The translations under genes were made by a program, and so were the position numbers. A stretch of 64,000 nt of DNA from a virus (lineage: Duplodnaviria; Caudoviricetes): the IMG/VR virus record IMGVR_UViG_3300019742_000001; one strand, 5' to 3'. Every line of letters begins with the position of its first letter. Position 1 is the first letter of the stretch. The notes beneath the pieces are model-generated. The model worked only from the letters and a program-made list of their open reading frames with translations. It was not told the origin of the DNA and did no database searches. Positions 17,578 to 48,936 of this stretch are shown here, piece after piece.

Positions 17578-17606
17578 ATAGTATCATAGGTGTAAGTGAG
17601 TGTCAA
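17578..17606 (-). promoter_or_regulatory. sigma70-like promoter
   Basis: TTGACA-17-TACTAT. Confidence 0.65.
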
Positions 17607-17610
17607 ATAT

Positions 17611-17618
17611 TATAAATA
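17611..17618 (+). promoter_or_regulatory. late promoter TATAAATA heading the leader-protein cluster
   Basis: Exact match 30 nt upstream of ATG 17648. Confidence 0.7.
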
Positions 17619-17647
17619 TAACTGAAACCAAAATATATGGAGAATAT

Positions 17648-18631
17648 ATGAGATTTGAAGATTTACTATTGAATGAGAAGGCAATGACACCGAAACAGGC
17701 TATCAAGTTTGCTACTGATACTGATTATAATAATATATCAAGTGCGTCAGAGAAAGAGTTCATTGAGACATGGAAAATGATAACCAAGGAGTGTAAAGGT
17801 TTCATTCGTGAATTGAGGAAAGGTGATCAATTATTGTTTAGAGGTATGAAAAACATAGACAATATGGGTAGCAGAGTACCGAGGAAGAATCGTAGACCTT
17901 TGGATACACCAACCGCAGTAAGTGACAAAGCCGATGAAATAATATTAGAGTTATTTGGATGGAAACCGAGACAAGAGGGTTTATTCACAACAGGAAATAC
18001 ATTGTTTGCTGGTGGGTATGGTGATATTTGCATGGTCTTTCCGGTAGACAAGTATGATATACTATGGAGTTCAAAGACAACTGATGCATATTCCAAATTA
18101 AGAGATAGGTCAATTGGTGATTACATTAGGAAGAACTACACAAAAGAATTGAAGACAATGTATGATAAAAAATTTGCTGAGGGACATGAGGGTGTGTATC
18201 GGATAAGAGATAAAGGATATAATGTACCACTCCAAAAGAAATATAGGATTAAAAAAGCTGCAATCAAGTATTATGTTGATTATATTAAACAAAGTAACTT
18301 GATTCAAGGGGATGTAGAAGAGTTCGTAAAAGATAATATATATTGGGACCCAGAGAGGTCATTTGATGGTTTCCTTAATTGGGTAAGACATGGGTATTTT
18401 CTTGATGAAGGTAGGAAGTCGTGGCCAGAAGGATTTGATAAATTATTCAGTGATGCTGTTGAGAAGATGGTAATTGATGAACTTGATTATAATGATAAAG
18501 ATTTAAGAAAGGCGATACAATCAGGTAATGAGATTCAAGTAAAGTGTGACAAATACTATTACATTGGACTGGAATGTATGCCATTAGTTGAATTATGTTT
18601 ATGGGGTAAGACGATAAGGAGTGAAATTTAA
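17648..18631 (+). CDS. putative ART-fold virion protein, subfamily B
   Basis: Start reassigned (GGAG RBS, MRFEDLLLNEK); LLFRGM / EGLFTTG / GNEIQV. Confidence 0.55.
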   Translation: MRFEDLLLNEKAMTPKQAIKFATDTDYNNISSASEKEFIETWKMITKECKGFIRELRKGDQLLFRGMKNIDNMGSRVPRKNRRPLDTPTAVSDKADEIILELFGWKPRQEGLFTTGNTLFAGGYGDICMVFPVDKYDILWSSKTTDAYSKLRDRSIGDYIRKNYTKELKTMYDKKFAEGHEGVYRIRDKGYNVPLQKKYRIKKAAIKYYVDYIKQSNLIQGDVEEFVKDNIYWDPERSFDGFLNWVRHGYFLDEGRKSWPEGFDKLFSDAVEKMVIDELDYNDKDLRKAIQSGNEIQVKCDKYYYIGLECMPLVELCLWGKTIRSEI

Positions 18632-19281
18632 TGAGATTACAACAATACATAACAGAAGGTGTTAGTGTAAAATATGATGACATATATGATATAATACCAC
18701 TAATAAAACGTGATTGTAAGAAGTGGATTAATGAAAGTAACGGACAGTTTGCGTTTAGAGGTATGAAAAACAAACCATTATTTATTAAACATGACGTAAG
18801 GAAAAACAGAAAACCAAAAGATACATCAAAGTCCCAACATGAATTGATGGATAACGTGATGAATGACAAATTTGGATGGCATCCTCGTTCTGAGGGTTTG
18901 TTTTGTTCGGGTGATATGATGTCAACAACTGATTATGGTGTTCCATACATGATATTTCCTATAGGTGATTATAGATATGTATGGAACCCAAAAGTTAAAG
19001 ATAGTTTTCTTGATACTTCTAACTTTTCATCATGGTGGGTCCAATTACTGAGTATTGCTATCGAAGATAAATTCTTAAATAAATTTATTATGGAAAAATC
19101 AACTAAAAAAATGTTGAAGGGGTACATTGATACTGGATTAAGTAACGCATTAAGACGAGATAATGAGGTAATGGTCGAATGTAAAGAGTATTATGCTATA
19201 CGAGCAGAATCCATACATAGTGTATATAATGATGACGCTCCATATGCATCATTCACAGACTTTTTGGTGGATATATCATGA
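18631..19281 (+). CDS. putative ART-fold virion protein, subfamily B
   Basis: MRLQQYITE; FAFRGM / EGLFCSG / DNEVMV. Confidence 0.55.
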   Translation: MRLQQYITEGVSVKYDDIYDIIPLIKRDCKKWINESNGQFAFRGMKNKPLFIKHDVRKNRKPKDTSKSQHELMDNVMNDKFGWHPRSEGLFCSGDMMSTTDYGVPYMIFPIGDYRYVWNPKVKDSFLDTSNFSSWWVQLLSIAIEDKFLNKFIMEKSTKKMLKGYIDTGLSNALRRDNEVMVECKEYYAIRAESIHSVYNDDAPYASFTDFLVDIS

Positions 19282-19874
19282 GATTACAACAATACATAAC
19301 AGAGAAGGCATCAAAGAACACCATTGTATGTGATGTTCAACCAATGTATGAACAATATCAGTCATTTGAGACATATGAGTTCACTGAATTCCTTAATACT
19401 CAAACTAAACAAGTTATGTATTATTTCAATGGACCTGATACTGTTGGTACTGATACAGAGAGTGATATCAAATACTGGTTGATTGAGAATGGATTGAATG
19501 AGGAAAAACTCAATGATATCACATTCTTTGATAAGGGGTATGCATATTTCCGATCATTTATGGATGAAGGTATATCCGAACATACAATAATCAAGATGAT
19601 TAGATATATGTTCAAGACAAGACAATGGGATTCACGTGATATAGAAAATGAAGAGTGGGAGAAGGCATTGGGTAGTGACTATGATAGTGATGTTGAACAT
19701 ATGTTAGACAGTGGTGATATGATTTATCCACCTGATATTGATATTCGTCAACTAAGGCAACACGGTGGAGGGTATATCGTAGGTGGTGGTAAGAGAGAAT
19801 GTTTGGCAGAACTTCAATTATTGATGTCTGCGTTTAATATAAAAGCAAGAGAAATTAAAAGATATGTATATTAG
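19278..19874 (+). CDS. isochorismatase/cysteine-hydrolase-like protein with leader
   Basis: MRLQQYITE; IVCDVQP...DKGY...IVGGGKRECL (D-K-C triad pattern). Confidence 0.55.
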   Translation: MRLQQYITEKASKNTIVCDVQPMYEQYQSFETYEFTEFLNTQTKQVMYYFNGPDTVGTDTESDIKYWLIENGLNEEKLNDITFFDKGYAYFRSFMDEGISEHTIIKMIRYMFKTRQWDSRDIENEEWEKALGSDYDSDVEHMLDSGDMIYPPDIDIRQLRQHGGGYIVGGGKRECLAELQLLMSAFNIKAREIKRYVY

Positions 19875-19883
19875 GAGATTATA

Positions 19884-20600
19884 ATGGTAAATTTAAAAGG
19901 TGCTTATGTTACAAAAGATGTGAAATTGGATAGATTACCCGATTTCGATGAAAGAAGTAAAAACTTTCCTATCAGAGAGTTGTCTGGTTCAAAGAAACAA
20001 CGGTCATACACTTGGCGTTGTAATGAACAATTAGATCAAGGACCAGATGGTGCATGTGTTGGGTTTGGTGTTGCACATGAGTTAATCGCAAGACCAGCAG
20101 AAGTTAAAGGTATCACTGACACTTATGCAAAACAGAATATCTATTGGGAAGCACAGAAGATTGATCCTTGGGATGGTGGTAGTTATCCCGGTGCATCACC
20201 ATTTTATGAAGGAACAAGTGTTCTTGCTGGTGTTAAAGTAGTTCATAAAATGGGTTGGATTGATTCATATCGTTGGGCATTTGGATTGGAAGACTTGATT
20301 CTTGGTGTTGGTCATAATGGTCCAGCCGTTATTGGTGTTGGATGGCACGGCAACATGTTTCAACCTGATTCAGATGGTTACATTCACGCATCAGGTGGTA
20401 TCTATGGTGGTCACTGTGTATTAGTAAATGCAGTTAATGTTAAGAAACAACGATTTACTATTCATAACTCATGGGGTAAATCATGGGGTATGAATGGTGA
20501 GTGTTATATTTCATTTGAAGATATGGGTAAACTATTGGCAGATCGGGGAGAAGCAGTATTCTTCTTAAAACGTCATAACAAAAAACAACCACAAATATAA
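19884..20600 (+). CDS. papain-like (C1) cysteine peptidase
   Basis: DQGPDGACVGFG, GGHCV, HNSWGKSWGMNG. Confidence 0.9.
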   Translation: MVNLKGAYVTKDVKLDRLPDFDERSKNFPIRELSGSKKQRSYTWRCNEQLDQGPDGACVGFGVAHELIARPAEVKGITDTYAKQNIYWEAQKIDPWDGGSYPGASPFYEGTSVLAGVKVVHKMGWIDSYRWAFGLEDLILGVGHNGPAVIGVGWHGNMFQPDSDGYIHASGGIYGGHCVLVNAVNVKKQRFTIHNSWGKSWGMNGECYISFEDMGKLLADRGEAVFFLKRHNKKQPQI

Positions 20601-20623
20601 TTAAAGTATGGAGGAATAATAGT

Positions 20624-21520
20624 ATGAGATTGGATCATTTTTTGGTGGAAGGTAGATCAAAATCACTAAAATTACAACAATTCAGAGATGAACTTGGTAG
20701 TGGGAAATATTCCGATGTATTAAAGTATTATAAAAGTTTGGATGATCCCACATCAGGGTTTATATACAGAGGTAATCGGTCATCCGATACATTGGCTGTT
20801 GTAGACCCTAAGACATCAACTAGGACTAGTCAAAACACAGATAATTATTACACTCTTTTTATTGATAATGATCCATCGTGGTCTAAATTCCCTAAAAGGA
20901 GTAAGTCACTAATCTGTACAACTGATTACTCAAAATCAATATTATATGGTAATGGTTATGTAATGTTCCCTGTTAACGGATCGGATATAGGAATTTGTCC
21001 AAAGGGAGATATATGGGGTAGTTTTAAGGGGTTAGAGTCTAGTGGGGGTAATGATGGGTTTTTGGCATTACTTTTTGAGTCATTTAACGATATGTTTACT
21101 GTTATTAACAAAAGCGGGGAGATAAAAGAATGTTTTAATGAAGATTTTTCTATAGAGTCTCTTGTGAATAGTATGCTTAGCAGATCTAAGCCAACTAAAC
21201 ATAAAACTTATGATGATGACATTGGAACATTTAAGAAACAACTGAAATATCTCGACCAACACATCAAAAAGAACGGACCAGATATATATTTGGGGTATCT
21301 ACCTCTGATTGATAAGTTGTTTAATACATTTTACAAAGGTGATATGTATAAGTGTATATCTGATATACTTGATCCCAAAAGAAGTGGGTTTAAGTTACAA
21401 AAGGTTGGCAAAAAACTACCAACCAATGGACATGAAGTATGGACTGATGGTAAATGTTTAATGATGGATGTTCATCTTTTTGGTCAATTACATGATTCAG
21501 GTGAATTGTATGATTTGTAA
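20624..21520 (+). CDS. putative ART-fold virion protein, subfamily A
   Basis: MRLDHFLVE; IYRGN / SLICTTD / HEVW. Confidence 0.55.
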   Translation: MRLDHFLVEGRSKSLKLQQFRDELGSGKYSDVLKYYKSLDDPTSGFIYRGNRSSDTLAVVDPKTSTRTSQNTDNYYTLFIDNDPSWSKFPKRSKSLICTTDYSKSILYGNGYVMFPVNGSDIGICPKGDIWGSFKGLESSGGNDGFLALLFESFNDMFTVINKSGEIKECFNEDFSIESLVNSMLSRSKPTKHKTYDDDIGTFKKQLKYLDQHIKKNGPDIYLGYLPLIDKLFNTFYKGDMYKCISDILDPKRSGFKLQKVGKKLPTNGHEVWTDGKCLMMDVHLFGQLHDSGELYDL

Positions 21521-21547
21521 AGAAATCACTAAAGAGGGTGGAAGTAT

Positions 21548-22387
21548 ATGAAATTACAGAGATATTTAATAGAAGGTCGTACCCAGAGTCTACCAAAAGA
21601 TGAATTCGAAAAACTGTTGAGAACTGACTATAGAGATTCTGTTATGTCAGTAATCAATGGAAAAGGGATGTTGTTTCGTGGTAACAAAGATACTCCACAA
21701 TATGGATATGTTGATACTTCAAAGGGGAAACTTAGACGATCTGCAAATACAAGTAATGAATATACACTGTGTATTGATAATTCGTCAAGGTGGAAGAATT
21801 ACCCTCGACGTGGTAGATCATTAATATGTTCCACCAGTTTATTATATGCTATTAATTATGGTCATCTTAATATTGTATTACCTATCAATGGATCATCTAT
21901 AGGTATATGTTCTGATGACGATTTTTGGTATAGTTTCCCATATATAGAGAAAGTGTTGCATATTAGAGATATGGATTCATTCAATAGTGAATTCAGGGAT
22001 CTATTACGTTGGGGTACAGGTAATAGAACCAATGATAAAAATTGGGCACAACTTAGATCGGCAATGAAAGAATTTGATAAGAAATTTGAGAATTATAATT
22101 ATGACTGGGACAATGTGTTTTCTGAAATATATTCGGGGATTAATTATACAAAATCTGCTTCTGCATGGGATGACGCATGGAAGGGTAGTTTACAAAAAAC
22201 TATCAATGATATAATAGATCCTGTAAATAATGAATTCAAGTTAGTCAATATTGGTGACCAGTTTGATGATGATTGTGAAGCATGGTTTAGTGGTAAATCA
22301 CTTGTTATCAATACTAACTATTTTGGTGACAAAGGTGAATATGAAAAAACATTGAATTATTTGATGTCAGTTATGGAGGGACATTAG
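21548..22387 (+). CDS. putative ART-fold virion protein, subfamily A
   Basis: MKLQRYLIE; LFRGN / SLICSTS / CEAW. Confidence 0.55.
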   Translation: MKLQRYLIEGRTQSLPKDEFEKLLRTDYRDSVMSVINGKGMLFRGNKDTPQYGYVDTSKGKLRRSANTSNEYTLCIDNSSRWKNYPRRGRSLICSTSLLYAINYGHLNIVLPINGSSIGICSDDDFWYSFPYIEKVLHIRDMDSFNSEFRDLLRWGTGNRTNDKNWAQLRSAMKEFDKKFENYNYDWDNVFSEIYSGINYTKSASAWDDAWKGSLQKTINDIIDPVNNEFKLVNIGDQFDDDCEAWFSGKSLVINTNYFGDKGEYEKTLNYLMSVMEGH

Positions 22388-22391
22388 GTTT

Positions 22392-22973
22392 ATGAAATTA
22401 CAGAGATATATAAATGAAATGGGGTTTGATGAGGAACAGGATTTATGGCAAAAAGAGATCTTGCCCAAACTTGAAAAGGATTGTAAACCATTCCTCAAAG
22501 AAAAGACATTACTTTATAGAGGTTTTGGTAGAAGATTTGATTTCGAATTTATCATACCTCGTAAGGATAGAAGACCATTGGATAGCCCACAGTGGTTCCA
22601 TGATGGTTTCGATAATGCATCTAAAAAAGTGTTTGGTTGGAAGTCGAGATCAGAGGGAGTCTTTGCATCATCTACATATTCAACAGCTAGTGCTTATGCT
22701 GGTAGTGGTACAGTGGCAATGGTATTCCCTAAAGGTAAATTCAAGTATATCTGGTCATCAAAGATCAATGATTTATTTGATGAACTCAATGATGAAGATT
22801 TCTCAATATTTGATGATGAAACTGCGTGGGTTCAATTCGTAAAACAGAACTACCAAGATAATAATTTAAGATCGGTTCGCAACGAAAACACAGAGATTAT
22901 GTTGTATTGTCCTAATGGATATTACGCGGTGGATGTGGCGTTTGATGAGGCTGTAAAAAAGGTGTTATTATGA
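22392..22973 (+). CDS. putative ART-fold virion protein, subfamily B
   Basis: MKLQRYINE; LYRGF / EGVFASST / NTEIML. Confidence 0.55.
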   Translation: MKLQRYINEMGFDEEQDLWQKEILPKLEKDCKPFLKEKTLLYRGFGRRFDFEFIIPRKDRRPLDSPQWFHDGFDNASKKVFGWKSRSEGVFASSTYSTASAYAGSGTVAMVFPKGKFKYIWSSKINDLFDELNDEDFSIFDDETAWVQFVKQNYQDNNLRSVRNENTEIMLYCPNGYYAVDVAFDEAVKKVLL

Positions 22974-23710
22974 GATTAGAATCGTATATAGATAGTAGTG
23001 ATATAACATATGAACAGTATGTATCAGGTATTGACTCATATTTCTCAGTGGATGAGGGTTTCAAAGAGGTCAAGGATAAGTCGGTTGCATTTGTTAAGAG
23101 ACAATTGAAGATGGCATCAGATGAATTTGATAAGATATCACATGAACTAGGGTTGTCATTGATTCAGATATCACATGCATTAACGGAAAAGAATGTGTTC
23201 AAGTTACTGAAATCAATAGGGTTTTCTTTCGTGAAACTTTTATCATCATTAAATGGATTATCAGGTATAGTTCGTCAAGGTCTGTTTGATGCATTTGAAG
23301 AATTATCCAAAACACAACTATGGATGAAGTTCAAGTCTGGTGTTGCTGCATGGGATGATATACTTGACCGATATCCAGTGATGAAAAAAGTAACTGGTGT
23401 GTTAGTCGCAGGTCTTTTGTTTTTCATGTGGACACAAATGACATTCATTGGAAATCTTGACTATGATTTTGATTTCACCTCAATTGCGTTGGCATTGAAA
23501 GGGAAATACTCACTGGAACAAATATTTGGTGGTCCTGAAGGTGCAATGTTATTGACACTGTTCGCTAGTGGATCATTAATTAGTGTTGCTTGGTTGGGTG
23601 AAACTGTATACAACCTGATCTTGGCATTGGTTTACACAGGTTCCAAGAAATTGTCAACTGTTGACCATAAGGTGGTTAACATAATCAAATCAAAAATGGT
23701 ATTCGAATGA
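22970..23710 (+). CDS. hypothetical membrane-associated protein with leader
   Basis: MRLESYI; hydrophobic segments VTGVLVAGLLFFMW and AMLLTLFASGSLISVAWL. Confidence 0.7.
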   Translation: MRLESYIDSSDITYEQYVSGIDSYFSVDEGFKEVKDKSVAFVKRQLKMASDEFDKISHELGLSLIQISHALTEKNVFKLLKSIGFSFVKLLSSLNGLSGIVRQGLFDAFEELSKTQLWMKFKSGVAAWDDILDRYPVMKKVTGVLVAGLLFFMWTQMTFIGNLDYDFDFTSIALALKGKYSLEQIFGGPEGAMLLTLFASGSLISVAWLGETVYNLILALVYTGSKKLSTVDHKVVNIIKSKMVFE

Positions 23711-24543
23711 GATTAGAACAGTATATTATCAACGAGAGTTCAAGATCAAAACCTTTGGACAAAGAAACGTTCGAAGAATTGTTGAGAACTGATTATAGTG
23801 ATGCTGCTAAGGCATTAGTCAAAAATGCCAGTAGTAGATTGTATCGTGGTAACTATGATCTTGCAAGATATGCCTTAACCGACCCTACCAAGGGAAGGTT
23901 ACGGAGATCATCTAACACATCAAATGAGTATACTCTGTTTATGGATAACAACAAGATATGGAATGAGTATCCTAATCGTGGTCGTTCCATTATATGTTCA
24001 ACCGATATGTTATCATCAGAACAGTATGGTGATAATGGGTTGGTTATCCCAATGAATGGCACACTACTTGGTCAATGTAATGAGTTTGATTTGTGGTCAT
24101 CATTCAAAGTATTGGAGAAATCACTTGATGTCGAGGATATGGATGATTTTAATCACACGTTACGTTTTCTAATTGGTGTAGGAAATGATACTAATTGGCG
24201 TACGTTACGTAAATCATTTACAACATTTGACAAGAAGCTAAAAGAGGGTGGTTGGGAATCGATATACAATGATATCATTACCAAGACTAAATATCAAAAG
24301 GAATATGCTCGTGAACTGGTTAGTAGGTGGGAGAAAATATGGAAGGGTTCTATGATGAAGACAATGGAATATCTATTAGATCCAAAGACTAACAAGTTTA
24401 AATTAAAGAAATCAGGTGACAAATTTGAACCAAATCGTGAGGTATGGGTTGGCGGTAAGGCGTTATATGTATCACTTGATTATCTTGACGCTACATCGGG
24501 TGATAAACACACAATCGATTATATAAAGAGGGTTATATCATGA
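23707..24543 (+). CDS. putative ART-fold virion protein, subfamily A
   Basis: MRLEQYIINE; LYRGN / SIICSTD / REVW. Confidence 0.55.
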   Translation: MRLEQYIINESSRSKPLDKETFEELLRTDYSDAAKALVKNASSRLYRGNYDLARYALTDPTKGRLRRSSNTSNEYTLFMDNNKIWNEYPNRGRSIICSTDMLSSEQYGDNGLVIPMNGTLLGQCNEFDLWSSFKVLEKSLDVEDMDDFNHTLRFLIGVGNDTNWRTLRKSFTTFDKKLKEGGWESIYNDIITKTKYQKEYARELVSRWEKIWKGSMMKTMEYLLDPKTNKFKLKKSGDKFEPNREVWVGGKALYVSLDYLDATSGDKHTIDYIKRVIS

Positions 24544-31055: not shown

Positions 31056-31539
31056 CCCAATCAGAATAACTTACTGTTCGTTCTCGTTCTCGTTCTCTTT
31101 CTATGCTCAGTTCTTGTGCATATCTGATTAATCGTGATGTCGTATCGTCTGAACCATCTTCTAATTCATCGTCTGATCTCCATGATTGTACTGGAACACC
31201 ATCAGGAATATCATCTTCTTCAATAGGTTCATCATTCCATTCGGTAGGTTCACCAGAAACACCTAACCGATTAATTCTGGTATCATCATCAATATCAGAT
31301 TCTAAATCAAATGGGTCAATATCTACAATAGACGGTTCTACTGTTTGTGACACTGTTTGTGACACTTCTTCCACTAAATGCCGACCAAATTCTTTGTCCA
31401 ATAGATCAAAAACATTTGATCCATCACCACCATCAGAAAGAATGAACTTTCTCCATTCGTCTAACATTTGATGGTAGAATTCGCCCATATGTTGAATTTC
31501 AAAATCATCATAATCATAATCATAATATTCCATAATCAT
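31000..31539 (-). CDS. acidic hypothetical protein
   Basis: D/E-rich; ERERERER tract. Confidence 0.65.
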   Translation of the reverse strand: MIMEYYDYDYDDFEIQHMGEFYHQMLDEWRKFILSDGGDGSNVFDLLDKEFGRHLVEEVSQTVSQTVEPSIVDIDPFDLESDIDDDTRINRLGVSGEPTEWNDEPIEEDDIPDGVPVQSWRSDDELEDGSDDTTSRLIRYAQELSIERERERERTVSYSDWVEPEWRTYNTDRWSTDDY

Positions 31540-32612
31540 TCTTCTTTCGAGTATAAATTTAGAATTATTTCGTTTGACTTACCACGATCATAATAACTGG
31601 TGATTTTATCACCGTCAAGCAGTGATTTAACCACATCTTCAATCTCACTGTATATAATTTTAAACTCTTCAATTGTTAAATAACCCAACTTAACAGTCTT
31701 TAATAATATGGCAGATGATAATGGGTAGATTACTTTACCTGTTGTTAATAACTCATGTGCTTCATATAATGCCCTCAAAGAATGAGATAATGATTTCCAA
31801 TCATTACAACCCATTTGTGCCGCAGTGTGTGATCGTTTACCGTATTTCTCATATTCATTTGTGATTCGTTCCTTAAAGGTGTCCAATAAAATTGTAGATT
31901 GATGTTCTTTCTTTGCTACTGTCAGAAAAAGATCACCATTTGATCTCGCATTTAGTGATATATAATCGTCACCCTTTGAATCTTGACTCTGACACTCTTC
32001 AATTAGATCAGCAAGATCAAGATCACCAAGTGTAGTTGTTTCACCAAGTTCTCTCCGATCTTCAAGATACACCAAAATGTTAAGTAATACAGTTAATCGG
32101 GAACCTTTTATCCCATATTTCATTGACTGACTACTGGCGAATCCTACAAAACCTTCAACCTTATTGGGATTATATAGGAATTGGTAGTTTTCAACCACAC
32201 CTTCCATCAAAGGATCTGCAAATATTACGTGTTCCATATTAAATGTTGAGAATAGAACGGACAGTGCATTGGAATCACCATCAGACATTAACTTGATCCA
32301 CTCTTGGATAGACCACAGTTCAATGTCTACGTCATCCTTAGAGTTTTTTGTGTCATCGTCACCACTCTGATAACGGAATAAGTTGGGTGTTTCACCTAAC
32401 AGACAAGAATCTTTCATTGGTAAGAAAATACCTTTGTAATCACTATCAGATTCAGGTGTTTCTGTGCCGTGAAGTCGTGAACCACTCTTACAAACATACA
32501 ATAGTTTATGTGGAGCTGTTAATGCGTTACAATATTCAATAACTTTGTAATCACTCCACGTTGACGTATTCTTTGTCTCTACTCTTTTTCTAAAATCAAC
32601 AGAACTTCCCAT
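31536..32612 (-). CDS. Pol-beta-superfamily nucleotidyltransferase (T4 NrdC.11/YcgL-like)
   Basis: SGSRLHGTETPESDSDYKGIF; WKSLSHSLR. Confidence 0.8.
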   Translation of the reverse strand: MGSSVDFRKRVETKNTSTWSDYKVIEYCNALTAPHKLLYVCKSGSRLHGTETPESDSDYKGIFLPMKDSCLLGETPNLFRYQSGDDDTKNSKDDVDIELWSIQEWIKLMSDGDSNALSVLFSTFNMEHVIFADPLMEGVVENYQFLYNPNKVEGFVGFASSQSMKYGIKGSRLTVLLNILVYLEDRRELGETTTLGDLDLADLIEECQSQDSKGDDYISLNARSNGDLFLTVAKKEHQSTILLDTFKERITNEYEKYGKRSHTAAQMGCNDWKSLSHSLRALYEAHELLTTGKVIYPLSSAILLKTVKLGYLTIEEFKIIYSEIEDVVKSLLDGDKITSYYDRGKSNEIILNLYSKEE

Positions 32613-33038: not shown

Positions 33039-33770
33039 TTATGAATCCCTCCCATCTATAAACTTTTGAGTTGTTCGTATTCTACTTCTTACATCCATAC
33101 ATGTCAACACTTCATTGAACACACAACCACTATCAAGGTTAATACGACCTTGGTCTTTGTTATCTTCATTGTATTTAATCATTTCATATCGTTCCATTGG
33201 TGTATGTCCGTGAACAATAACCCTGCCTTTCATTGGTGTGCCTTGTGAGTAAAGGAATTTGTCCCGTATCCATAACAGATCGTGTAACTGTTGTTCTTCC
33301 ATAGGATAGTTTGGATCTATACCAGCGTGAACAAACACAAACTCATCTTCTTCGTATGCATATTTAAGGTTATCATAAAAATTTTGGTGTGATTCGGGTA
33401 GGTCACTAAATGATAGATCACCTTCTATTCCAAGGTTATCACTATAAGAATCTAATGTTACCGTACCACCATTGAACATAAACATACTGTGGTCATCATT
33501 TGACATTCTATCCCAACCACCTGAATTTACTGATCTTTTTAGATAGTTGAGTAGCATACTTTCGTGGTTGCCCATCAAAAAGACACAATTGTACAGTTCC
33601 ATTAGTTCAATTAAATACTCAATGGTTTCGAATACTCGTGGACCACGGTCAATCATATCTCCAAGAAAGATCAAAGTGTCATTCGGTGTGGGTGACACTT
33701 TGTCAATTAAGGATTTCAATGTATTAGCGCAACCATGTACGTCCCCGATAGCAAGTAACCTTCCTCTCAT
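33039..33770 (-). CDS. calcineurin-like Ser/Thr phosphatase-family metallophosphoesterase
   Basis: GDVHG, GDMIDRG, GNHE, HAG, HGHT; start reassigned to MRGRLL with AGGAG RBS. Confidence 0.9.
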   Translation of the reverse strand: MRGRLLAIGDVHGCANTLKSLIDKVSPTPNDTLIFLGDMIDRGPRVFETIEYLIELMELYNCVFLMGNHESMLLNYLKRSVNSGGWDRMSNDDHSMFMFNGGTVTLDSYSDNLGIEGDLSFSDLPESHQNFYDNLKYAYEEDEFVFVHAGIDPNYPMEEQQLHDLLWIRDKFLYSQGTPMKGRVIVHGHTPMERYEMIKYNEDNKDQGRINLDSGCVFNEVLTCMDVRSRIRTTQKFIDGRDS

Positions 33771-33809
33771 TTCATAACTCCTTTTAAAAATTGAACTTTT
33801 TGTGATTTT

Positions 33810-33817
33810 TATAAATA
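33810..33817 (+). promoter_or_regulatory. late promoter TATAAATA for the LAGLIDADG gene
   Basis: Exact match 30 nt upstream; GGAGG RBS follows. Confidence 0.7.
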
Positions 33818-33847
33818 CATATAACAACCAATCATAGGAGGTTATAC

Positions 33848-34450
33848 ATGGAAACAAAATCTATAATTTATGGTACTCTATTAGGTGACGCTTACATACC
33901 AAAACCAAGGATAATAAAAACCAAGAGTCGTGGAGGTCAGAACAATAATCTCAGATACACCCATTCCAAGAAACAACAAGATTGGGCTTTATACAAGGCT
34001 GTGAGAATAAATATGCCTTTCACTGTATACCAACGAGACAGATACGATAAACGAACAGGTAAAACACATGGTTCTTTTGAGATAATCCATTCCGCTAATT
34101 CGTATTTTAATGATATTAGAGAGACATTTTACCCCAATGGAACCAAGATTGTTACCCAAGAAATTCTTGATGTTTTAACACCAGAGGCTATTGCTGTTTG
34201 GTATTGTGACGATGGTAATTTATATACTAACAAAAAACAATACCTTTGTCATCTTACCCTCTCAACCAATAGTTTTAGTGATGGTGAGAGGGCATTAATC
34301 ATAGATTATTTCAAATCCAACTATGGTCTTAATTTCAAATCAACAACTCAAGGTGCCATTAGATTAACTAACAAATCACAGGCTGAATTATTTCTATCAC
34401 ATTTTGGTCAATATATACCTGAATGTATGAAATATAAAACTCTGATTTGA
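33848..34450 (+). CDS. free-standing LAGLIDADG homing endonuclease
   Basis: IIYGTLLGDAYI and IAVWYCDDGNL motifs; antisense to its neighbours. Confidence 0.9.
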   Translation: METKSIIYGTLLGDAYIPKPRIIKTKSRGGQNNNLRYTHSKKQQDWALYKAVRINMPFTVYQRDRYDKRTGKTHGSFEIIHSANSYFNDIRETFYPNGTKIVTQEILDVLTPEAIAVWYCDDGNLYTNKKQYLCHLTLSTNSFSDGERALIIDYFKSNYGLNFKSTTQGAIRLTNKSQAELFLSHFGQYIPECMKYKTLI

Positions 34451-36368: not shown

Positions 36369-36716
36369 TTAATATAATCCGTGTAATATTTTCTTACTAT
36401 CATGATCTAAGAACATTAGGTTTATTGCTATTCTATCACGACAATCAATCCAATTATCAAGATGTTGTCTATATGAAAATGAGCTTCTAATCAAAGTCAC
36501 CATAAACACTGGTTGAAGTCGGTTTAATTCAACTGATTTCAATAACTCATCAATTCCAGATAAACCATAAATTTCTATTGTTTCCTCAATACATTTGATT
36601 AAGGATGCTACAACACGAGCATCTGTAACCTCGTATTCAACATCATAAAACTCTTCCATCCAACTAATATCTAACATTACACTCTCCAAAGAAATGTTCC
36701 AATGATCCCACATCAA
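36369..36716 (-). CDS. hypothetical protein
   Basis: 115 aa ORF. Confidence 0.6.
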   Translation of the reverse strand: MMWDHWNISLESVMLDISWMEEFYDVEYEVTDARVVASLIKCIEETIEIYGLSGIDELLKSVELNRLQPVFMVTLIRSSFSYRQHLDNWIDCRDRIAINLMFLDHDSKKILHGLY

Positions 36717-37734
36717 CCTTTATTTTTCTATCACAATAACTAACAAAGAATCTGTCACATTTGTGGTGATCTGAACATGTAAACAACACTCTTGTCTTAA
36801 TTGATGTGTCATTCAACTCAAGATTTGCCATCTTAATAGAATACTCAAGTAAATCAATATCAAGTATGGTCTTTCTGAAAGAACCTTGGTGTTCGTTAAA
36901 CTCATTCGTTTCAATCACATCATCACGTAGATCCAATAAGTCAGATAGATCTTCATTGTTGAGTGGACCATCACCGTGACGTGTGGAATAAGTTCTTGAT
37001 ACGTAATTTATCAATACAGTATCAGTTAGATTGAATTCTTTGATCAGTTGTAGTGCGTTACATGCCGTTGTTTTAGATCTTGTGACATGAGGGAAAAACC
37101 CTAGATCCTGATCCAGTAGGATACCTTGGGCTCCCTCAAAGATTGGTTGTTTGATGTCTGTTGGTCGTTTAATCTTAATGTTCTTTATGGATAACAATTC
37201 TTTGCAGTTATCGTAGAACTCCGACATATCGACATCACAATCATAATACCACTTCTCCATCATACTAATCTTTTGTTTGAGTACACTCATGTTCAAAAGA
37301 TCACCAGCATAAATCTTGAAATGATCCTCGTTGCGTTGAATTGTTTGACCAAATCCAACACCTACGGTTCCATGACTCGTTTGGTTTAATACAATATCTT
37401 GTGGTAGGGTCAACGGACACATAGGGTCAATGTATAACACTGGATCGTAACCTAGTTCCGTCAACGTTTCGTGTTCATTTAGCAGTCCGAGAGGGTGAAC
37501 GGTACAGAATTTGCTCCAATAAGTGGGGATATTCTTAAATGTGCCACAACCAAAGTTTGAAAATACATGTCTATGATTTTCAAATACTACGGTATGACCC
37601 GCTTGATGTCCACCATTGAATCTAATAACATAATCGTTGGGGTTACCCTTAAATATGTTGTCACAGATGAGGTCAAAAACTGTTTGTCCTTTACCTTCAT
37701 CACCAAATCCTGCACCGATCACGATATCTAACAT
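36664..37734 (-). CDS. purA: short, divergent adenylosuccinate synthetase-like protein
   Basis: GFGDEGKG, RFNGGHQAGHTV, HGTVGVG, EGAQGILLD, HVTRS. Confidence 0.8.
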   Translation of the reverse strand: MLDIVIGAGFGDEGKGQTVFDLICDNIFKGNPNDYVIRFNGGHQAGHTVVFENHRHVFSNFGCGTFKNIPTYWSKFCTVHPLGLLNEHETLTELGYDPVLYIDPMCPLTLPQDIVLNQTSHGTVGVGFGQTIQRNEDHFKIYAGDLLNMSVLKQKISMMEKWYYDCDVDMSEFYDNCKELLSIKNIKIKRPTDIKQPIFEGAQGILLDQDLGFFPHVTRSKTTACNALQLIKEFNLTDTVLINYVSRTYSTRHGDGPLNNEDLSDLLDLRDDVIETNEFNEHQGSFRKTILDIDLLEYSIKMANLELNDTSIKTRVLFTCSDHHKCDRFFVSYCDRKIKVDVGSLEHFFGECNVRY

Positions 37735-37746
37735 GTCAACCCTTTC

Positions 37747-38646
37747 TTATAGGATGATTTCTTCCTGACCATTTACGACAGGATTAACATTTCCAACAGT
37801 ATCAGTCACATCGACGGATTCGAAATGGTCAACTGTTGATCCTCCACGTACGTTCTTCAAAACGAGTTCTGATACAACAGTAGGGATTTCGGTATGATCT
37901 CTAATTACGATCAAGTGGTCACCTAACAATTGTTTCCACGCATCATCAACACGACGATAAGAGCTTTCAATGAAGATGTGATAAATCTCGTTCTGTTTTC
38001 CTGCCTCAGCAAGCAATTCTTCTGCTGTTACTGTGGATTGAACTCTACAAGTGTCACCCATAATCTCTTTAAGTGAACTCATAGGGTATGTTGGTAGAAA
38101 TGGTTCATCACCAATTGTTACAACAATACCTTTCTTTCCTCGTTTATCAAAACTATCTGTGGATGTGTGGTATGAGGAGAAATACCAAGCCAACGGATAA
38201 GACTCTCCTGCGTTACCACCTCCACCACCTTCAAGATAGGTTCGTGTCAACCACATATCAAGTTCTGCGTCACCTGACTCAAACTGTGCTACTTGTAGGG
38301 GGTATCTATCACACTCATGGTCACCGATAGCACCAAACATAAGTGAAATGTCTGGAATACCACTCTGGATGATCTTGCTAATCAATGTTGGCAGACCATC
38401 TTTGATTAGTTGGTGGGGGATATGACCCATTGACCCTGTTACATCCAAGTATAACTGTAGTGGTACAGTATTTGGATGGGCATCACTGTCACGACATTCA
38501 CGAACATCAATATTCTTTGATGACATTTCAGCGTGAGACTTCCGTTCTGATTGTTGTTGAAAGATCTGATTGATACTTTTTGTTGCGTATCCTACATTGG
38601 TACTACGCATTGAACGATCTAATGTTGAATAAGAACTGTATCCCAT
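37747..38646 (-). CDS. vWA-domain protein
   Basis: LYLDVTGSMG (MIDAS DxTxS), AIGDH, GGGGNAGESY, TIGDE. Confidence 0.8.
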   Translation of the reverse strand: MGYSSYSTLDRSMRSTNVGYATKSINQIFQQQSERKSHAEMSSKNIDVRECRDSDAHPNTVPLQLYLDVTGSMGHIPHQLIKDGLPTLISKIIQSGIPDISLMFGAIGDHECDRYPLQVAQFESGDAELDMWLTRTYLEGGGGGNAGESYPLAWYFSSYHTSTDSFDKRGKKGIVVTIGDEPFLPTYPMSSLKEIMGDTCRVQSTVTAEELLAEAGKQNEIYHIFIESSYRRVDDAWKQLLGDHLIVIRDHTEIPTVVSELVLKNVRGGSTVDHFESVDVTDTVGNVNPVVNGQEEIIL

Positions 38647-39507: not shown

Positions 39508-39566
39508 TTCTTCCCCTTTGTGATTATTAGTCTATATTACATCTTCACTGTTGATATGTAAACACA

Positions 39567-39752
39567 TCAATCCATCATGTTCGTTATGTTGATTAGGTTA
39601 TCATCAATTTCTATATTTGTTTCGTGTAGATTAACTGCCTTTTGCCACCGTTCAAGATAATATTTGAATTCATCAAGATCAGTGAATAAAATCTCACCTG
39701 AAAATACTGATGCATCCATATCATCCATTTGATCACTATAATTATGTCCCAT
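39567..39752 (-). CDS. hypothetical protein
   Basis: GAGG RBS. Confidence 0.55.
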   Translation of the reverse strand: MGHNYSDQMDDMDASVFSGEILFTDLDEFKYYLERWQKAVNLHETNIEIDDNLINITNMMD

Positions 39753-39906
39753 TAATCAGTCTCCTCTTCGTCATCTTCTTCGCCATCGTGGTCACCAATA
39801 CAACAAGTACCATCATCCATCTGGGCACATTCATAACAGTTTTCCAAACATGGTGATTCAGTACACCCAATACAGTTGTTATCTTTGTTAGGTAGGTTAC
39901 AACACA

Positions 39907-40428
39907 TTATTCCACAATTACTCCAAAGATCTTAGGTAGTTGATATTCCATATAGAAATCATGGGCTTCTTGGTTGAAGTCAGCTACCGCATTACTATCA
40001 ACCATGATTGAATAGTCACGATTGGCAAGATCTGCAATGGTTTGTGCCACACAAATTGATGTACAACAACCAACTACTTCAACAAGATCAGGTTTTTGGT
40101 CTAACAACAGTTGTTCAAGGATGGTTCCGTAGAATCCACTGTAACGTTTTTTACTGATAATAAAATCATACTCCTGTGGGGTTAGTTCGTCAATAACCTT
40201 TGCACCCCATGTACCGTCAACTGCATGTGTCGGGAACCGTTCAAATTCAGTATCAAATTGATAGTGATTATCATTAAGGTAAACGATAATATCACCATTC
40301 TTACGGTATTCTTCTAACTTTTGTTTGATTACTGGTACAATCGGGTAACCGTTTTCTTTCAGTGACAATACACCAGCCTCATCAATGAAATCATTAAGCA
40401 TATCAACAACTAAAATAACTTTTTTCAT
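39907..40428 (-). CDS. pncA: nicotinamidase
   Basis: VVDMLNDF, DNH, FPTHAVDGTWGA, KKRYSGF, VGCCTSICV. Confidence 0.85.
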   Translation of the reverse strand: MKKVILVVDMLNDFIDEAGVLSLKENGYPIVPVIKQKLEEYRKNGDIIVYLNDNHYQFDTEFERFPTHAVDGTWGAKVIDELTPQEYDFIISKKRYSGFYGTILEQLLLDQKPDLVEVVGCCTSICVAQTIADLANRDYSIMVDSNAVADFNQEAHDFYMEYQLPKIFGVIVE

Positions 40429-41258
40429 ACAATATCCTCTCTTGGAATGTTATAGGGATTTTCTCTCTTGAAGTGAGTTGCATTATACCGCGTAATGACA
40501 GGATGTGTTACCATTAGTTTACAGTCATCAGGTAGGTTAAGATAACCAATCATAATCTGATCAACCTCCTCATATGAATCAGCACCTAGTTGGTCAAGAT
40601 CTGAATTAGTAATACCAAGACCATCGGTTGGTGTTGCATCAATACAATCATTTAATGACATAGCACGAAAATGGCAATTTAATCTACGATACATATCAAC
40701 AATATAACTTGATAGACCATAAACCTCAGTCTTCCAAAGGTTTTGAACCATACCATAATCACCAACATCACCGTTGAGTGTCCAGAAACCCATCAACAGT
40801 TCAGTGTAATTGTCTGTTCCTAACACCATCCCACCTGTTACACCAGCAAGGTGATAGAGTTGAATCATCCGAATTCGTGCTTTAATATTTCCTTTTGCAA
40901 TTTTACCAGCATAACTGTCTTCGTCCATATCACCTAAGTCAAGTTCGGTGAGGTTATCAAAAAACAAATTAGTCAAATCAATTTCTTCAAAGTCATCACA
41001 AAAATAACCACCAATTGAGTCAGCTCGTGAAATTTCATCCTCTTTGTTTGTTTCGATCACAATGGAACGACCAATAAGTGGGATACCAGTACCAGACTTA
41101 TCAATAGCATGTCGTGCAAGTGCCGCAACCAGTGCTGAGTCAATCCCACCACTAACACCTAACACCAGTGATTTTACCCCACTACTGATAATGTAATCCG
41201 ATAATTTCTTGGTAGTATTATCAAACATCTTTTCATAGTTTGTTGACAGTTCATACAT
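40425..41258 (-). CDS. nadE: NH3-dependent NAD+ synthetase
   Basis: LGVSGGIDSA, GNIKARIRM, GTDNYTE, GFWTLNGD, PTDGL. Confidence 0.9.
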   Translation of the reverse strand: MYELSTNYEKMFDNTTKKLSDYIISSGVKSLVLGVSGGIDSALVAALARHAIDKSGTGIPLIGRSIVIETNKEDEISRADSIGGYFCDDFEEIDLTNLFFDNLTELDLGDMDEDSYAGKIAKGNIKARIRMIQLYHLAGVTGGMVLGTDNYTELLMGFWTLNGDVGDYGMVQNLWKTEVYGLSSYIVDMYRRLNCHFRAMSLNDCIDATPTDGLGITNSDLDQLGADSYEEVDQIMIGYLNLPDDCKLMVTHPVITRYNATHFKRENPYNIPREDIV

Positions 41259-41282
41259 ATGATAGTTTCTCCTTGTCGTTTG

Positions 41283-41792
41283 TTATGAAGTGGATTTTAC
41301 ATCTTTCATAGGATTAAAAATCACCTTCTTGTCAACACCATCAAAATATTGAAAGTAATCAATCAGGATACGAGCATGGTCAAATGGAACGTGATTTAAA
41401 GATATCAATCTTTCAATTTGTTTTCTTGACAAGAACTTTGCCTCACGTGCATCTGATGCTGCTAAAGGTTCTTGTTTTTGATAGACACGATGACCAATAA
41501 ACACGGTTGTTGTGTTGTGTTGTCGTGGGTCACGGTTAGGGTCAGAGTATGTATAGAACATTTCGTCTAACCAAATGTCGAGGGAAACTTCCTCTTTCGC
41601 TTCACGAACAGATGCATTTTCAAACGATTCACCTTCATCAACGAATCCTCCCGGTAATGCCCACCCAAAAGGGGCATTTTCTCTGGAAATCATCATAATT
41701 AAAGGACCACCCTCACATACAGGATTCATTTCTGTGATGATGATATCGACTACTGGTGTTGGATTTCTATATTCAGACATTTTATACCTCAT
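41283..41792 (-). CDS. Nudix hydrolase (ADP-ribose pyrophosphatase-like)
   Basis: WALPGGFVDEGESFENASVREAKEE; DPNRDPR. Confidence 0.85.
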   Translation of the reverse strand: MRYKMSEYRNPTPVVDIIITEMNPVCEGGPLIMMISRENAPFGWALPGGFVDEGESFENASVREAKEEVSLDIWLDEMFYTYSDPNRDPRQHNTTTVFIGHRVYQKQEPLAASDAREAKFLSRKQIERLISLNHVPFDHARILIDYFQYFDGVDKKVIFNPMKDVKSTS

Positions 41793-41798
41793 ATGTTG

Positions 41799-43022
41799 TT
41801 AAACTACTTTGAATACCTTCTTGATGTATGCCTCAAATTCAGGATCTTCACACATTCCCTTACCTTGACTGTCAGAAATCTTACACACTGGCATCCCATC
41901 CAATTCAATCATTTTCAATACGATACTGATTGGTTCACATCCCATATCATTCATCAGGTTAGTACCAATACCGAAACTCACATTAATAAACGGACTGAAT
42001 CGTTTGAATAGGTTGTATGCGGTGTTGAAAGTAAGACCATCAGAGAATACAGCAGTTTTGGTCTTTGGGTCAATACCTAATTTACGGTAGTGATCAATTA
42101 GTTTTTCACACCATACAACAGGATCACCACTATCATGACGACAACCATCAAATAACTTGGCAAAGAACAGATCAAAGTCTTCCAAGAATGCATCAAACCC
42201 ACAGATATCACTCAAGGCAATACCAAGTTCACCACGGTACTCTTGTGCCCATACATCTAGTGATTCCTTCTGACTATCAACCAAACGACCACCTAATTGT
42301 TGGTGTGCTTGGAACCATTCATGAGCCATTGTACCAATTGGTGTAAGATCATACTTCATTGCGAAGAATAGGTTGGATGTACCAACAAGAACTCCTGCGG
42401 GTAACTTTTCAATTAGTTCTGATAACACGAACCCTTGCCATTCAAAACTATACCGACGACGAGTACCAAAGTCAGCAAATTTAAATCCTTCTAATGAACC
42501 AACCTTGTTAAGTAAGTTGAGAGATTCAATTTTATATTTTAATAGGTCACGACCACTTGGAATAGTAGTTGCTTGCATCTTACATTGACTGTGTAGTTCT
42601 GAAACAATAGCAAGAACAGGTACTTCCAACCCTGTAACGGCAACCCACGGTCCGTCTAAGACAATATCCAATGATCCATCACTCATAACCTCAACCTTTA
42701 CGTGGTCACGGTTATATTTGAACATACGAAGGTAGTCAACATAATCATCTTTGAAGATTTGTGTTCCGATTTTAGACCGAATATTACGAACAAAATCTAA
42801 TTCTTCTGTTGTATATGACAGATTACACAGGTGGTCAATACTCTGGTTCAGTGCCAATAGAAATTCACTGTCACCAACACCATTTGATGGGAATCCATTA
42901 CCTTTACGAGCTTTGAATCTCCATTTGGTAGTGGCAGATGTATATCGATGGAACATTGCCTGTCCCATCGACAATTTATACAGATCAGTGTCCAACATAC
43001 TTTCAATCAATACTGGTTTCAT
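41799..43022 (-). CDS. pncB: nicotinate phosphoribosyltransferase
   Basis: LDTDLYKLSM, DFGTRRR, GTSN, GTMAHEW, RHDSGDP, FSDGL, KISD. Confidence 0.95.
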   Translation of the reverse strand: MKPVLIESMLDTDLYKLSMGQAMFHRYTSATTKWRFKARKGNGFPSNGVGDSEFLLALNQSIDHLCNLSYTTEELDFVRNIRSKIGTQIFKDDYVDYLRMFKYNRDHVKVEVMSDGSLDIVLDGPWVAVTGLEVPVLAIVSELHSQCKMQATTIPSGRDLLKYKIESLNLLNKVGSLEGFKFADFGTRRRYSFEWQGFVLSELIEKLPAGVLVGTSNLFFAMKYDLTPIGTMAHEWFQAHQQLGGRLVDSQKESLDVWAQEYRGELGIALSDICGFDAFLEDFDLFFAKLFDGCRHDSGDPVVWCEKLIDHYRKLGIDPKTKTAVFSDGLTFNTAYNLFKRFSPFINVSFGIGTNLMNDMGCEPISIVLKMIELDGMPVCKISDSQGKGMCEDPEFEAYIKKVFKVV

Positions 43023-43036
43023 ATCATTCCTTATAT

Positions 43037-43095
43037 AAAAATGGGGTTATCCGAAAGACAACCCCATTCTATCTACTATTCACTTATAAGTCAAG
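43037..43095 (-). promoter_or_regulatory. promoter-stem-loop cassette, copy 1
   Basis: TTGACT-17-TAGAAT followed by a GGGGTTGTC/GATAACCCC hairpin and T-run. Confidence 0.85.
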
Positions 43096-44383
43096 ATGTT
43101 TTAAGATTCATCACTGGAACAACACGATGTACAATATCCGCAGTCGGTCCAATACAGTTTTCAATGGTCTTTGCTGACTTGTATGCTAATGGTGATTCAT
43201 CTAATGGTTTAACTGAGGCATACACCCCTTCCATCACATCTTCAGCATCTTCCTTTGATATGGTTTGTTTTGCCTTTGAACGGGAAAACAATCTCCCTGC
43301 TCCGTGTGGTGATGAACAGTTCCACTCTTCGTTAGACTTACCCTCAACAATCAATAATCCATCTGCTGGATTAAATGGGACTATCATTTTCTCACCCACA
43401 TAAGATCTAATAGAACCTTTACGAATGACCCAATCATCAAAGTCAATGAAGTTGTGAACAGTTGAGATATACTCTATCACAAACTTACCGATAATATCAA
43501 GGATATCAAAAATCATCACATTACGACTAAGATCAGCATATTTTTGAGCAATCAACATGTCTACCAGATACCCATACATATCTTCACCTTCAAGATATTC
43601 TGTTCCTTTAGGTACATTTGATTGTTTACCCATATATTTGTCGAATTTTGCAATCTCTTGTTGCCATTTGTCTCGTTTGAACATTGATTTGACCTGTGCA
43701 ACATACTCAACTTTTGACATTGTAGGTTCAGTCATTCGTTGTCGTGCAATCTCTTGCCAATATTCAGCAACACATTTCCCGAAATTACGTGATCCTGAGT
43801 GGACAGTTACCCAATAGTCATCCTTTTCATCCTTACCAATCTCAATGAAATGGTTACCTCCACCTAATGTACCAATTGACATCAAGGCACGTTGGGGGTT
43901 ACATCCAACTTTGGTGAACATACTAACCAATTTCTCACTGTCCATCACAACTGGATTCATTCTCAGATTGAACTTCTTGTTGAATCTCATTGTAAACAGA
44001 CGAATCTCTTCATTGATTTCTTTCCATTTAAATACTGCGTCAGATGATACTTTGTCACGGATGTTAGTTCCAAATGGTATTGACTTACGAATAGAATTGT
44101 CCAAGATTTTCATGGACATATCATCAAATAAATCAGACCCAACATTACATGACACCATTCCACATCCAATATCTACACCGACAGTGTTAGGTATAATTTT
44201 ATCCCCTAATGGCATAGTAAATCCAATTACACTACCTTTACCAGCGTGACAGTCAGGCATAATGGCAATCGGTTCCGTGAATGCTGGGTGATTTGTCATT
44301 GCAACAATTTGTGACATACAAGTTTCATCGACACTATCGATCATTATTTTTGCTGATGTATATTTTCCTGTTACTTCTATCAT
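43091..44383 (-). CDS. rtcB: RtcB RNA ligase
   Basis: MPDCHAGKG, GVDIGCG, GTLGGGNHFIE, HSGSR, HNF, HGAGR. Confidence 0.95.
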   Translation of the reverse strand: MIEVTGKYTSAKIMIDSVDETCMSQIVAMTNHPAFTEPIAIMPDCHAGKGSVIGFTMPLGDKIIPNTVGVDIGCGMVSCNVGSDLFDDMSMKILDNSIRKSIPFGTNIRDKVSSDAVFKWKEINEEIRLFTMRFNKKFNLRMNPVVMDSEKLVSMFTKVGCNPQRALMSIGTLGGGNHFIEIGKDEKDDYWVTVHSGSRNFGKCVAEYWQEIARQRMTEPTMSKVEYVAQVKSMFKRDKWQQEIAKFDKYMGKQSNVPKGTEYLEGEDMYGYLVDMLIAQKYADLSRNVMIFDILDIIGKFVIEYISTVHNFIDFDDWVIRKGSIRSYVGEKMIVPFNPADGLLIVEGKSNEEWNCSSPHGAGRLFSRSKAKQTISKEDAEDVMEGVYASVKPLDESPLAYKSAKTIENCIGPTADIVHRVVPVMNLKTS

Positions 44384-45242: not shown

Positions 45243-45304
45243 AAAAGAAAAGGGTCATCCGTTAAGACAACCCCATTCTATCTACTATTCACTTGTTAGT
45301 CAAG
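45243..45304 (-). promoter_or_regulatory. promoter-stem-loop cassette, copy 2
   Basis: TTGACT-17-TAGAAT + hairpin + TTTTCTTTT. Confidence 0.85.
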
Positions 45305-48875: not shown

Positions 48876-48936
48876 TAAAAAAAGGGTCATCCGTTAAGAC
48901 AACCCCATTCTATCTACTATTCACTTGTAAGTCAAG
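48876..48936 (-). promoter_or_regulatory. promoter-stem-loop cassette, copy 4
   Basis: TTGACT-17-TAGAAT + hairpin + T-run. Confidence 0.85.

Follow-up and report, generated by a model that had tools for sequence, protein, structure and literature searches.

Can a bacteriophage rebuild NAD+ by the deamidating (Preiss-Handler) route with a gene cluster that lacks the adenylyltransferase of that pathway? The question is raised by four co-directional minus-strand genes at positions 39907-43022 of a 64-kb stretch of viral DNA (IMG/VR record IMGVR_UViG_3300019742_000001; the whole stretch is referred to below as the window), which encode a nicotinate phosphoribosyltransferase (PncB), a Nudix hydrolase, an NAD+ synthetase (NadE) and a nicotinamidase (PncA). 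We consider it probable that this locus is a phage-borne Preiss-Handler NAD+ salvage module, and that it derives, with nadD lost, from a five-gene cluster passed down in a clade of T4-like jumbo phages. Its elements, with protein lengths in amino acids (aa), are as follows.

41799-43022, minus strand: pncB, nicotinate phosphoribosyltransferase, 407 aa
41283-41792, minus strand: Nudix hydrolase, probably an ADP-ribose pyrophosphatase
41259-41282, minus strand: spacer of 24 bp with an AAGGAG ribosome-binding site, occupying the position of nadD in relatives (junction alignment and gene maps)
40425-41258, minus strand: nadE, single-domain (ammonia-type) NAD+ synthetase, 277 aa
39907-40428, minus strand: pncA, nicotinamidase, 173 aa

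The genes are closely packed, with 6-18 bp between PncB and Nudix, 24 bp between Nudix and NadE, and a 4-bp overlap of NadE and PncA. The Nudix protein has 169 aa if read from the first ATG and 165 aa from the start at 41780, which is favoured by the relatives and by public gene calls.

That the cluster comprises four contiguous genes in the order pncB-Nudix-nadE-pncA, as a preliminary description of this DNA had it, was confirmed by motifs and by Pfam and NCBIfam family profiles with curated cut-offs, the scores lying far above chance. PncB scored 411 bits on TIGR01514 (cut-off 269.55) and 481 bits on NF003704, also above the cut-off of that profile; its closest solved relative is 1yir, annotated as Nicotinate phosphoribosyltransferase 2 (E 1e-111), and the motifs FGTRRR (residue 185), GTMAHE (230) and RHDSGD (295) are all kept. 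NadE scored 118.7 bits on TIGR00552 (cut-off 63.65) and carries an SGGIDS PP-loop at residue 36. Since it is a single PP-loop domain without a glutaminase domain, it is assigned to the ammonia-dependent type, and most of the solved structures that match it best, the first seven without exception, are NH3-dependent NAD synthetases.

PncA is the weakest assignment of the four, matching the Isochorismatase family PF00857 (E 5e-36) and reaching no NCBIfam equivalog cut-off. Despite this, the view that it is a true nicotinamidase holds up when residues and predicted fold are considered together. Across 38 homologues no variation is seen either in the catalytic triad D9, K93 and C126, which aligns to that of Bacillus subtilis PncA (5zn8), or in the metal ligands D53, H55 and H68; a metal site of this kind (Asp-x-His and a downstream His) is what we take to separate nicotinamidases from other isochorismatase-like hydrolases. 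The AlphaFold2 (AF2) model of PncA (pLDDT, the predicted local distance difference test, 91.8) superposes on 5zn8, the B. subtilis nicotinamidase, with a template-modelling (TM) score of 0.93. Across solved nicotinamidases the TM scores are 0.92-0.94 to 5zn8/6a8l, 3s2s and 3o9x and 0.90 to 1ilw or, by species, 0.90-0.94 for B. subtilis, Streptococcus pneumoniae, Streptococcus mutans and Pyrococcus horikoshii and 0.74-0.84 for Staphylococcus aureus.

The Nudix protein matches PF00293 (E 1e-14) and has the Nudix box GX5EX7REUXEEXGU at residues 49-71, with S in place of the closing G and REx2EE invariant; a second motif, YSDPxRDPRxH, is invariant across this Nudix family. Matches in sequence and fold were found to 2yyh, 2fml, the ADP-ribose pyrophosphatase domains of NadM (2qjt, 2qjo and 2r5w) and the complex of NrtR with ADP-ribose (3gz8), the top match, 2yyh, being uncharacterised; the NCBIfam matches, to NtrR and NadM-Nudix, were partial and below the equivalog cut-off. 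On these matches the protein may belong to the ADP-ribose-binding clade of NadM-Nudix and NrtR proteins, and hydrolysis of ADP-ribose is the best guess for its activity. The preliminary proposal that it recycles ADP-ribose would agree with such a clade; hydrolysis and the return of the product to phosphoribosyl pyrophosphate (PRPP) are steps that we infer.

Loss of nadD from a conserved cluster

The evidence that a gene has been lost comes from four related phage contigs, designated L001 (IMG/VR, 51 kb), L082 (ENA, 217 kb), L084 (with L085, ENA, 31-46 kb) and L087 (IMG/VR, 236 kb), in all of which the order is pncB-Nudix-nadD-nadE-pncA. The nadD gene of these relatives (~520-570 bp) overlaps the 3' end of the Nudix gene in all four, and the L084 NadD clears the equivalog cut-off of TIGR00482 (117.6 against 112.45). 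Identity between the window and L001, L082 and L084 is 70-75% for PncB, 60-63% for NadE and 60-61% for PncA, and the Nudix proteins of L082 and L084 share 70-71% with that of the window. ClpP, RlaP, a metallophosphatase and PolB form a neighbourhood common to the window and its relatives; RtcB lies upstream of the cluster in the window and downstream in the relatives. Replacement of the Nudix gene from elsewhere was considered, as the window protein has 36% identity to that of L001, but was rejected in view of the orthologues in L082 and L084, the divergent member of the pair being that of L001.

In a maximum-likelihood tree of PncB, nine viral sequences form one clade (support 100/100) separate from the sampled bacterial PncBs, with the topology (L001,(window,(L082,L084))) supported at 99/97. 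Because lineages that carry nadD bracket the window, a single loss of nadD from a complete ancestral five-gene cluster is the most parsimonious account of these sequences; the preliminary description had overlooked this loss. Alignment of the junction shows that the 3' end of the Nudix gene and the 5' end of nadE match the relatives and that the nadD coding sequence is replaced by the 24 bp containing AAGGAG. Four assemblies, produced independently (ENA and Logan), show the layout without nadD, and the junction is bridged with zero differences by contigs of three sequencing runs; an assembly artefact is therefore ruled out. Separately, the contigs of a fourth microbial-mat run, of low depth (~5x), end at 41240 and 41279, flanking the Nudix-nadE junction, which may reflect chance or a coexisting variant.

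The preliminary description had found neither NadD nor PRPP synthetase in the window, and directed searches bore this out. A tblastn search with the NadD of a relative gave no match in the 64 kb, and a custom NadD hidden Markov model, run with --max against all six-frame open reading frames (ORFs) of the window, gave a best E value of 0.71. Pfam scans of every sizeable window ORF, together with precomputed Pfam calls for the public contigs, revealed no PF01467 protein, Nampt, PRPP synthetase, NadR or PnuC. The Preiss-Handler set of PncB, NadD and NadE is hence incomplete in the window, PncB and NadE being present and the nicotinate mononucleotide (NaMN) adenylyltransferase absent. The nucleotidyltransferase at 31536, earlier put forward as a speculative NadD, was rejected as a candidate: it is RlaP (PF10127), an RNA-repair enzyme of the polymerase-beta type, which fits the nearby RtcB.

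Exactly one PF01467 gene was found in each of five related viral records, of which two are 98% complete (236-241 kb); in four of the five this gene lies inside the NAD cluster (the fifth was not placed). This suggests that a second adenylyltransferase is not usual in this phage group. No PRPP synthetase was found in the same five records. Two further searches were weak tests: a homologue search with the L001 NadD gave no match attributable to the window phage, none of its matches being on a contig of ~239 kb, and also missed the NadD of the L082 type, and a scan of Joint Genome Institute (JGI) metagenomes with the L084 NadD found only the L084 phage and one 86% relative. Since no NadD, nicotinamide mononucleotide adenylyltransferase (NMNAT), Nampt or PRPP synthetase is present in the window, the module most likely depends on the NadD and the PRPP synthetase (Prs) of its host.

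Endonuclease genes were observed in the region: in L082 a homing-endonuclease-like gene (DUF723; L082:6981-7931) is inserted between pncB and the Nudix gene, and the window has a LAGLIDADG endonuclease gene at 33848-34450 on the opposite strand. Such endonucleases may drive rearrangements in the NAD region. Other viral contigs carry pncA-pncB-nadD-nadE, pairs of pncB and pncA, or pncB with nadE nearby; judged by these gene maps, the association of NAD genes in phages is recurrent and variable in composition.

Transcription unit and genomic setting

The elements that flank the four genes are listed below.

43040-43094, minus strand: promoter-like element, GC-rich hairpin and T run; one copy of a repeated cassette
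39752-39907, minus strand: 51-aa acidic, Cys-rich ORF with no assigned function, joined to pncA by a TAATG overlap (translational coupling)
39567-39752, minus strand: 61-aa acidic ORF coupled to the 51-aa ORF; a backbone gene with a homologue in L001

The preliminary claim that the genes stand behind their own promoter cassette is sound in so far as the cassette is a real sequence element. Within the 68-bp gap between RtcB and pncB, TTGACT-17-TAGAAT (43094-43066) agrees with the consensus at 10 of 12 positions, and its -35 hexamer contains the RtcB stop codon; directly after this element come a GC-rich hairpin (z -3.7), a T run and then a ribosome-binding site. The 35-mer at 43060-43094 has two more copies upstream (45269-45303 and 48901-48935, minus strand) where none is expected by chance, and in public assemblies contigs are broken at the cassette and word depth is ~3-fold higher there. 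Its recurrence, the assembly breaks and the word depth therefore mark it as a genuine repeated cassette, which has the look of a terminator joined to a restart site for early genes.

The unit extends past 39907, as the 51-aa and then the 61-aa ORF continue it through TAATG stop-start overlaps; it probably comprises six genes and stops before the next promoter-like site near 39562. The 61-aa protein has 58% identity to L001:16877-16990, which in L001 is placed outside the NAD cluster. The 51-aa protein has ten cysteines and an acidic tail, and the related phage loci yielded no homologue of it.

The same sequence was traced to an ENA contig of 239,309 bp and to several shorter ones of other samples, and four microbial-mat metagenome runs contain it. 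Replication genes of the T4 type in the window encode PolB (29% identity to cyanomyovirus polymerases), UvsW, UvsY, a gp41-like helicase and thioredoxin, and other window genes encode RtcB, RlaP, ClpP, and Mom-like and Dam-like proteins. No match was obtained when the operon was compared by megablast with GenBank phages or when an exact 40-mer was looked up in IMG/VR. The window represents a distant T4-like jumbo phage of ~239 kb without a close relative among the phages of GenBank.

Several neighbouring genes deserve mention. A set of RNA-repair genes lies around the NAD operon (RtcB, 43091-44383; RlaP, 31536-32612; metallophosphatase, 33039-33857; RNA ligase, 2-1054). Between the operon and ClpP a PurA-like protein (PF00709) adjoins a 299-aa phrog_2971 protein (36664-38646); the pair is not at that position in L001 and L082. 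About 1.5 kb past the left end of the window lies an LpxC homologue (PF03331; L086:10048-10851), and a phage-encoded LpxC suggests a Gram-negative host. Neither the paralogous ART-like (ADP-ribosyltransferase-like) genes at 17600-24543 (plus strand) nor the leader-tagged 'cysteine hydrolase' at 19278-19874 gave a Pfam match at E 0.01. The ART assignment behind the preliminary suggestion that the operon feeds seven ART-like enzymes consequently found no Pfam support and is putative.

Recent capture of a bacterial operon was also considered as the origin of the locus. The nearest bacterial PncBs, from Desulfuromonadales, Desulfobulbales and Psychromonas, show 43-45% identity, and no nadE, pncA or Nudix gene was found within 6 kb of them in a bacterial sample that is biased by the search method. 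Because the viral PncBs form a separate clade and these bacterial pncB neighbourhoods are unlinked to the other genes, recent capture is rejected for the sampled lineages; the cluster looks to have been assembled and inherited within phages.

Proposed pathway and alternative readings

The pathway from nicotinamide through nicotinate, NaMN and nicotinate adenine dinucleotide (NaAD) to NAD+, which the preliminary description had set out, is well supported by the enzyme assignments. PncA would convert nicotinamide to nicotinate and ammonia, PncB would combine nicotinate with PRPP, using ATP, to give NaMN, NadD of the host would convert NaMN to NaAD, and NadE would form NAD+ from NaAD, ammonia and ATP; the reactions of PncA, PncB, NadD and NadE are those of the established pathway. 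Release of ammonia by PncA and its use by NadE stand at 1:1, a stoichiometric observation that is no evidence of channelling. The Nudix hydrolase would split ADP-ribose into AMP and ribose-5-phosphate, from which host Prs could then regenerate PRPP. We envisage the genes being transcribed as one unit from the repeated early-type promoter cassette, and the likely benefit would be to sustain the NAD+ supply during infection, whether in the face of NAD-degrading defences or to meet the demand of phage enzymes that consume NAD.

Four points weigh against this interpretation. The NadD search spans 64 kb, and a relocated or non-homologous NMNAT could lie in the other ~175 kb of the 239-kb genome. 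The best structural match of the Nudix protein, 2yyh, is without an established function, and fold alone does not give substrate specificity. In the literature searched, no activity, expression or infection phenotype was found for any phage Preiss-Handler cluster. Finally, loss of nadD could also signal a pathway that is being dismantled.

If that last point is taken to its conclusion, the cluster ceased to work when nadD, which four related contigs retain, was lost, and is now on its way out. We think this very improbable: none of the four genes that are left is truncated or has lost a catalytic residue, a proper spacer with a ribosome-binding site stands where nadD was deleted, and the same intact form recurs in several samples. 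Moreover, host NadD is to our knowledge nearly universal, which would make nadD the most dispensable of the phage genes. Another alternative is an altered order of reactions. In the NMN synthetase route of Francisella, NadE acts on NaMN to give nicotinamide mononucleotide (NMN); were the phage NadE to do so, the missing step would be that of an NMN adenylyltransferase, supplied by host NadR or NadM. The solved relatives of the phage NadE include 3fiu, an NH3-dependent NAD synthetase entry that we take to be the Francisella enzyme, and the Nudix protein resembles the Nudix domain of NadM enzymes. However, the solved structures closest to it are those of ordinary NH3-dependent NAD synthetases and an adenylyltransferase would be needed regardless. 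Amidation of NaMN by NadE is unlikely because the orthologous NadE of the relatives (62-63% identity) is encoded directly beside a NadD-type enzyme, and we regard the altered order as very improbable.

The salvage module that we favour could serve either of two ends. It might be dedicated to counter-defence, rebuilding NAD+ from both products of defence NADases in the manner of the NAD+ reconstitution pathways NARP1 and NARP2 but via deamidated intermediates. Both products could be handled, nicotinamide by PncA and ADP-ribose by a Nudix protein that may be of the ADP-ribose-binding clade; the promoter is of an early type, and NARP1, NARP2 and NARP3 show that rebuilding of NAD+ counters such defences. 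Nevertheless, the route uses more ATP and more steps than NARP1 or NARP2 and also needs two host enzymes, the literature searched contains no experiment on phage Preiss-Handler clusters, and the same data are accounted for by a general metabolic role; we hold the counter-defence reading only tentatively. The metabolic role would consist in supplying NAD+ to phage enzymes and removing inhibitory nicotinamide, independently of host immunity. A corresponding idea, 'independent synthesis and utilisation', has been put forward for NAD-jumbo phages, in which NAD synthesis genes co-occur with NAD-consuming genes and complement host pathways (PMC11662467). Against its application here, the putative ART-like ORFs lack a Pfam match, and the window yielded neither an NAD-dependent ligase nor a sirtuin, so that this reading too is a possibility to which we give limited credence. 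The stronger proposition, that the operon without nadD is a working counter-defence pathway yielding NAD+ from both NADase products with borrowed host NadD and Prs, is in our view doubtful. If true, it would be the first validated deamidating route of NAD+ reconstitution in a phage, and the loss of nadD would show that, when NAD+ is depleted, the adenylylation step is not what limits the pathway.

Comparison with known systems

NAD+ is a central battleground of bacteria and phages, and experiments have established three routes by which phages reconstitute it: NARP1 (Adps and Namat), NARP2 (Nampt and Nmnat) and NARP3 (a PnuC transporter and a NadR-like enzyme; PMC13464706). The window module is distinct from NARP1 and NARP2 by gene content, as had been claimed. 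Like NARP1, it would salvage nicotinamide and ribose phosphate derived from ADP-ribose, but NARP1 makes ADP-ribose pyrophosphate and joins nicotinamide to it directly, whereas the window module is predicted to hydrolyse ADP-ribose; the window scans yielded no ORF resembling PRPS or Nampt, and the only type II phosphoribosyltransferase there passes the nicotinate phosphoribosyltransferase (NAPRTase) equivalog. With NARP2, exemplified by NadV and NatV of Vibrio phage KVP40, it shares nicotinamide as the starting compound and a type II phosphoribosyltransferase; NatV, too, comes with a Nudix module, joined there to the adenylyltransferase. NARP2, however, is amidated, has two steps and brings its own adenylyltransferase, whereas the window module would deamidate first, needs NadE and has no adenylyltransferase; neither Nampt nor Nmnat, nor any PF01467-type protein, was found in the window scans. 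NARP3 likewise restores NAD+ in a phage context but imports nicotinamide riboside, and the window scans revealed neither a PnuC transporter nor a NadR homologue.

The suggestion that the locus represents a novel third phage route is not sustained, given that the name NARP3 already belongs to the PnuC and NadR pair and that phage Preiss-Handler clusters were published in 2024. Such clusters (pncB-nadD-nadE, for example Kuafu_71), phage pncA genes and the clustering of NAD genes in jumbo phages were described by bioinformatics only in a study of gut jumbo phages (Microbiome 2024; PMC11662467). The deamidating route, common in large uncultured phages, is not discussed in the NARP preprint, and the literature searched contained neither 'NARP4' in a phage context nor an experimental test of a phage Preiss-Handler route. 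The window phage resembles the NAD-jumbo phages in being a jumbo phage with clustered pncB and nadE, in the predicted synthesis of NAD+ from nicotinate and in the proposed supply of NAD+ during infection; it differs in the absence of nadD, in having pncA and a Nudix gene in the operon and in belonging to a T4-like microbial-mat lineage rather than to gut Bacteroidota phages. By the definition of a NAD-jumbo phage, a genome of >200 kb with all genes of at least one NAD+ pathway (PMC11662467), it would fall outside that group unless an adenylyltransferase lies elsewhere in the genome.

Among bacteria, the salvage operon pncA-pncB1-nadE of Pseudomonas aeruginosa (PMC7318152) unites the same three enzymes and is likewise without nadD. 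The phage PncBs form their own clade, the nearest bacterial PncBs having none of the partner genes nearby. On its own, then, the locus adds one more example to a known kind and introduces no new principle, and the counter-defence idea attached to it is a reasonable conjecture. What is specific to it is the documented loss of nadD from a conserved cluster: L001, L082, L084 and L087 have orthologous genes in the same order and neighbourhood, and the window alone is without nadD. The clade thus offers a natural comparison of complete five-gene clusters with a four-gene cluster lacking nadD, which could reveal the steps that the phage itself must supply.

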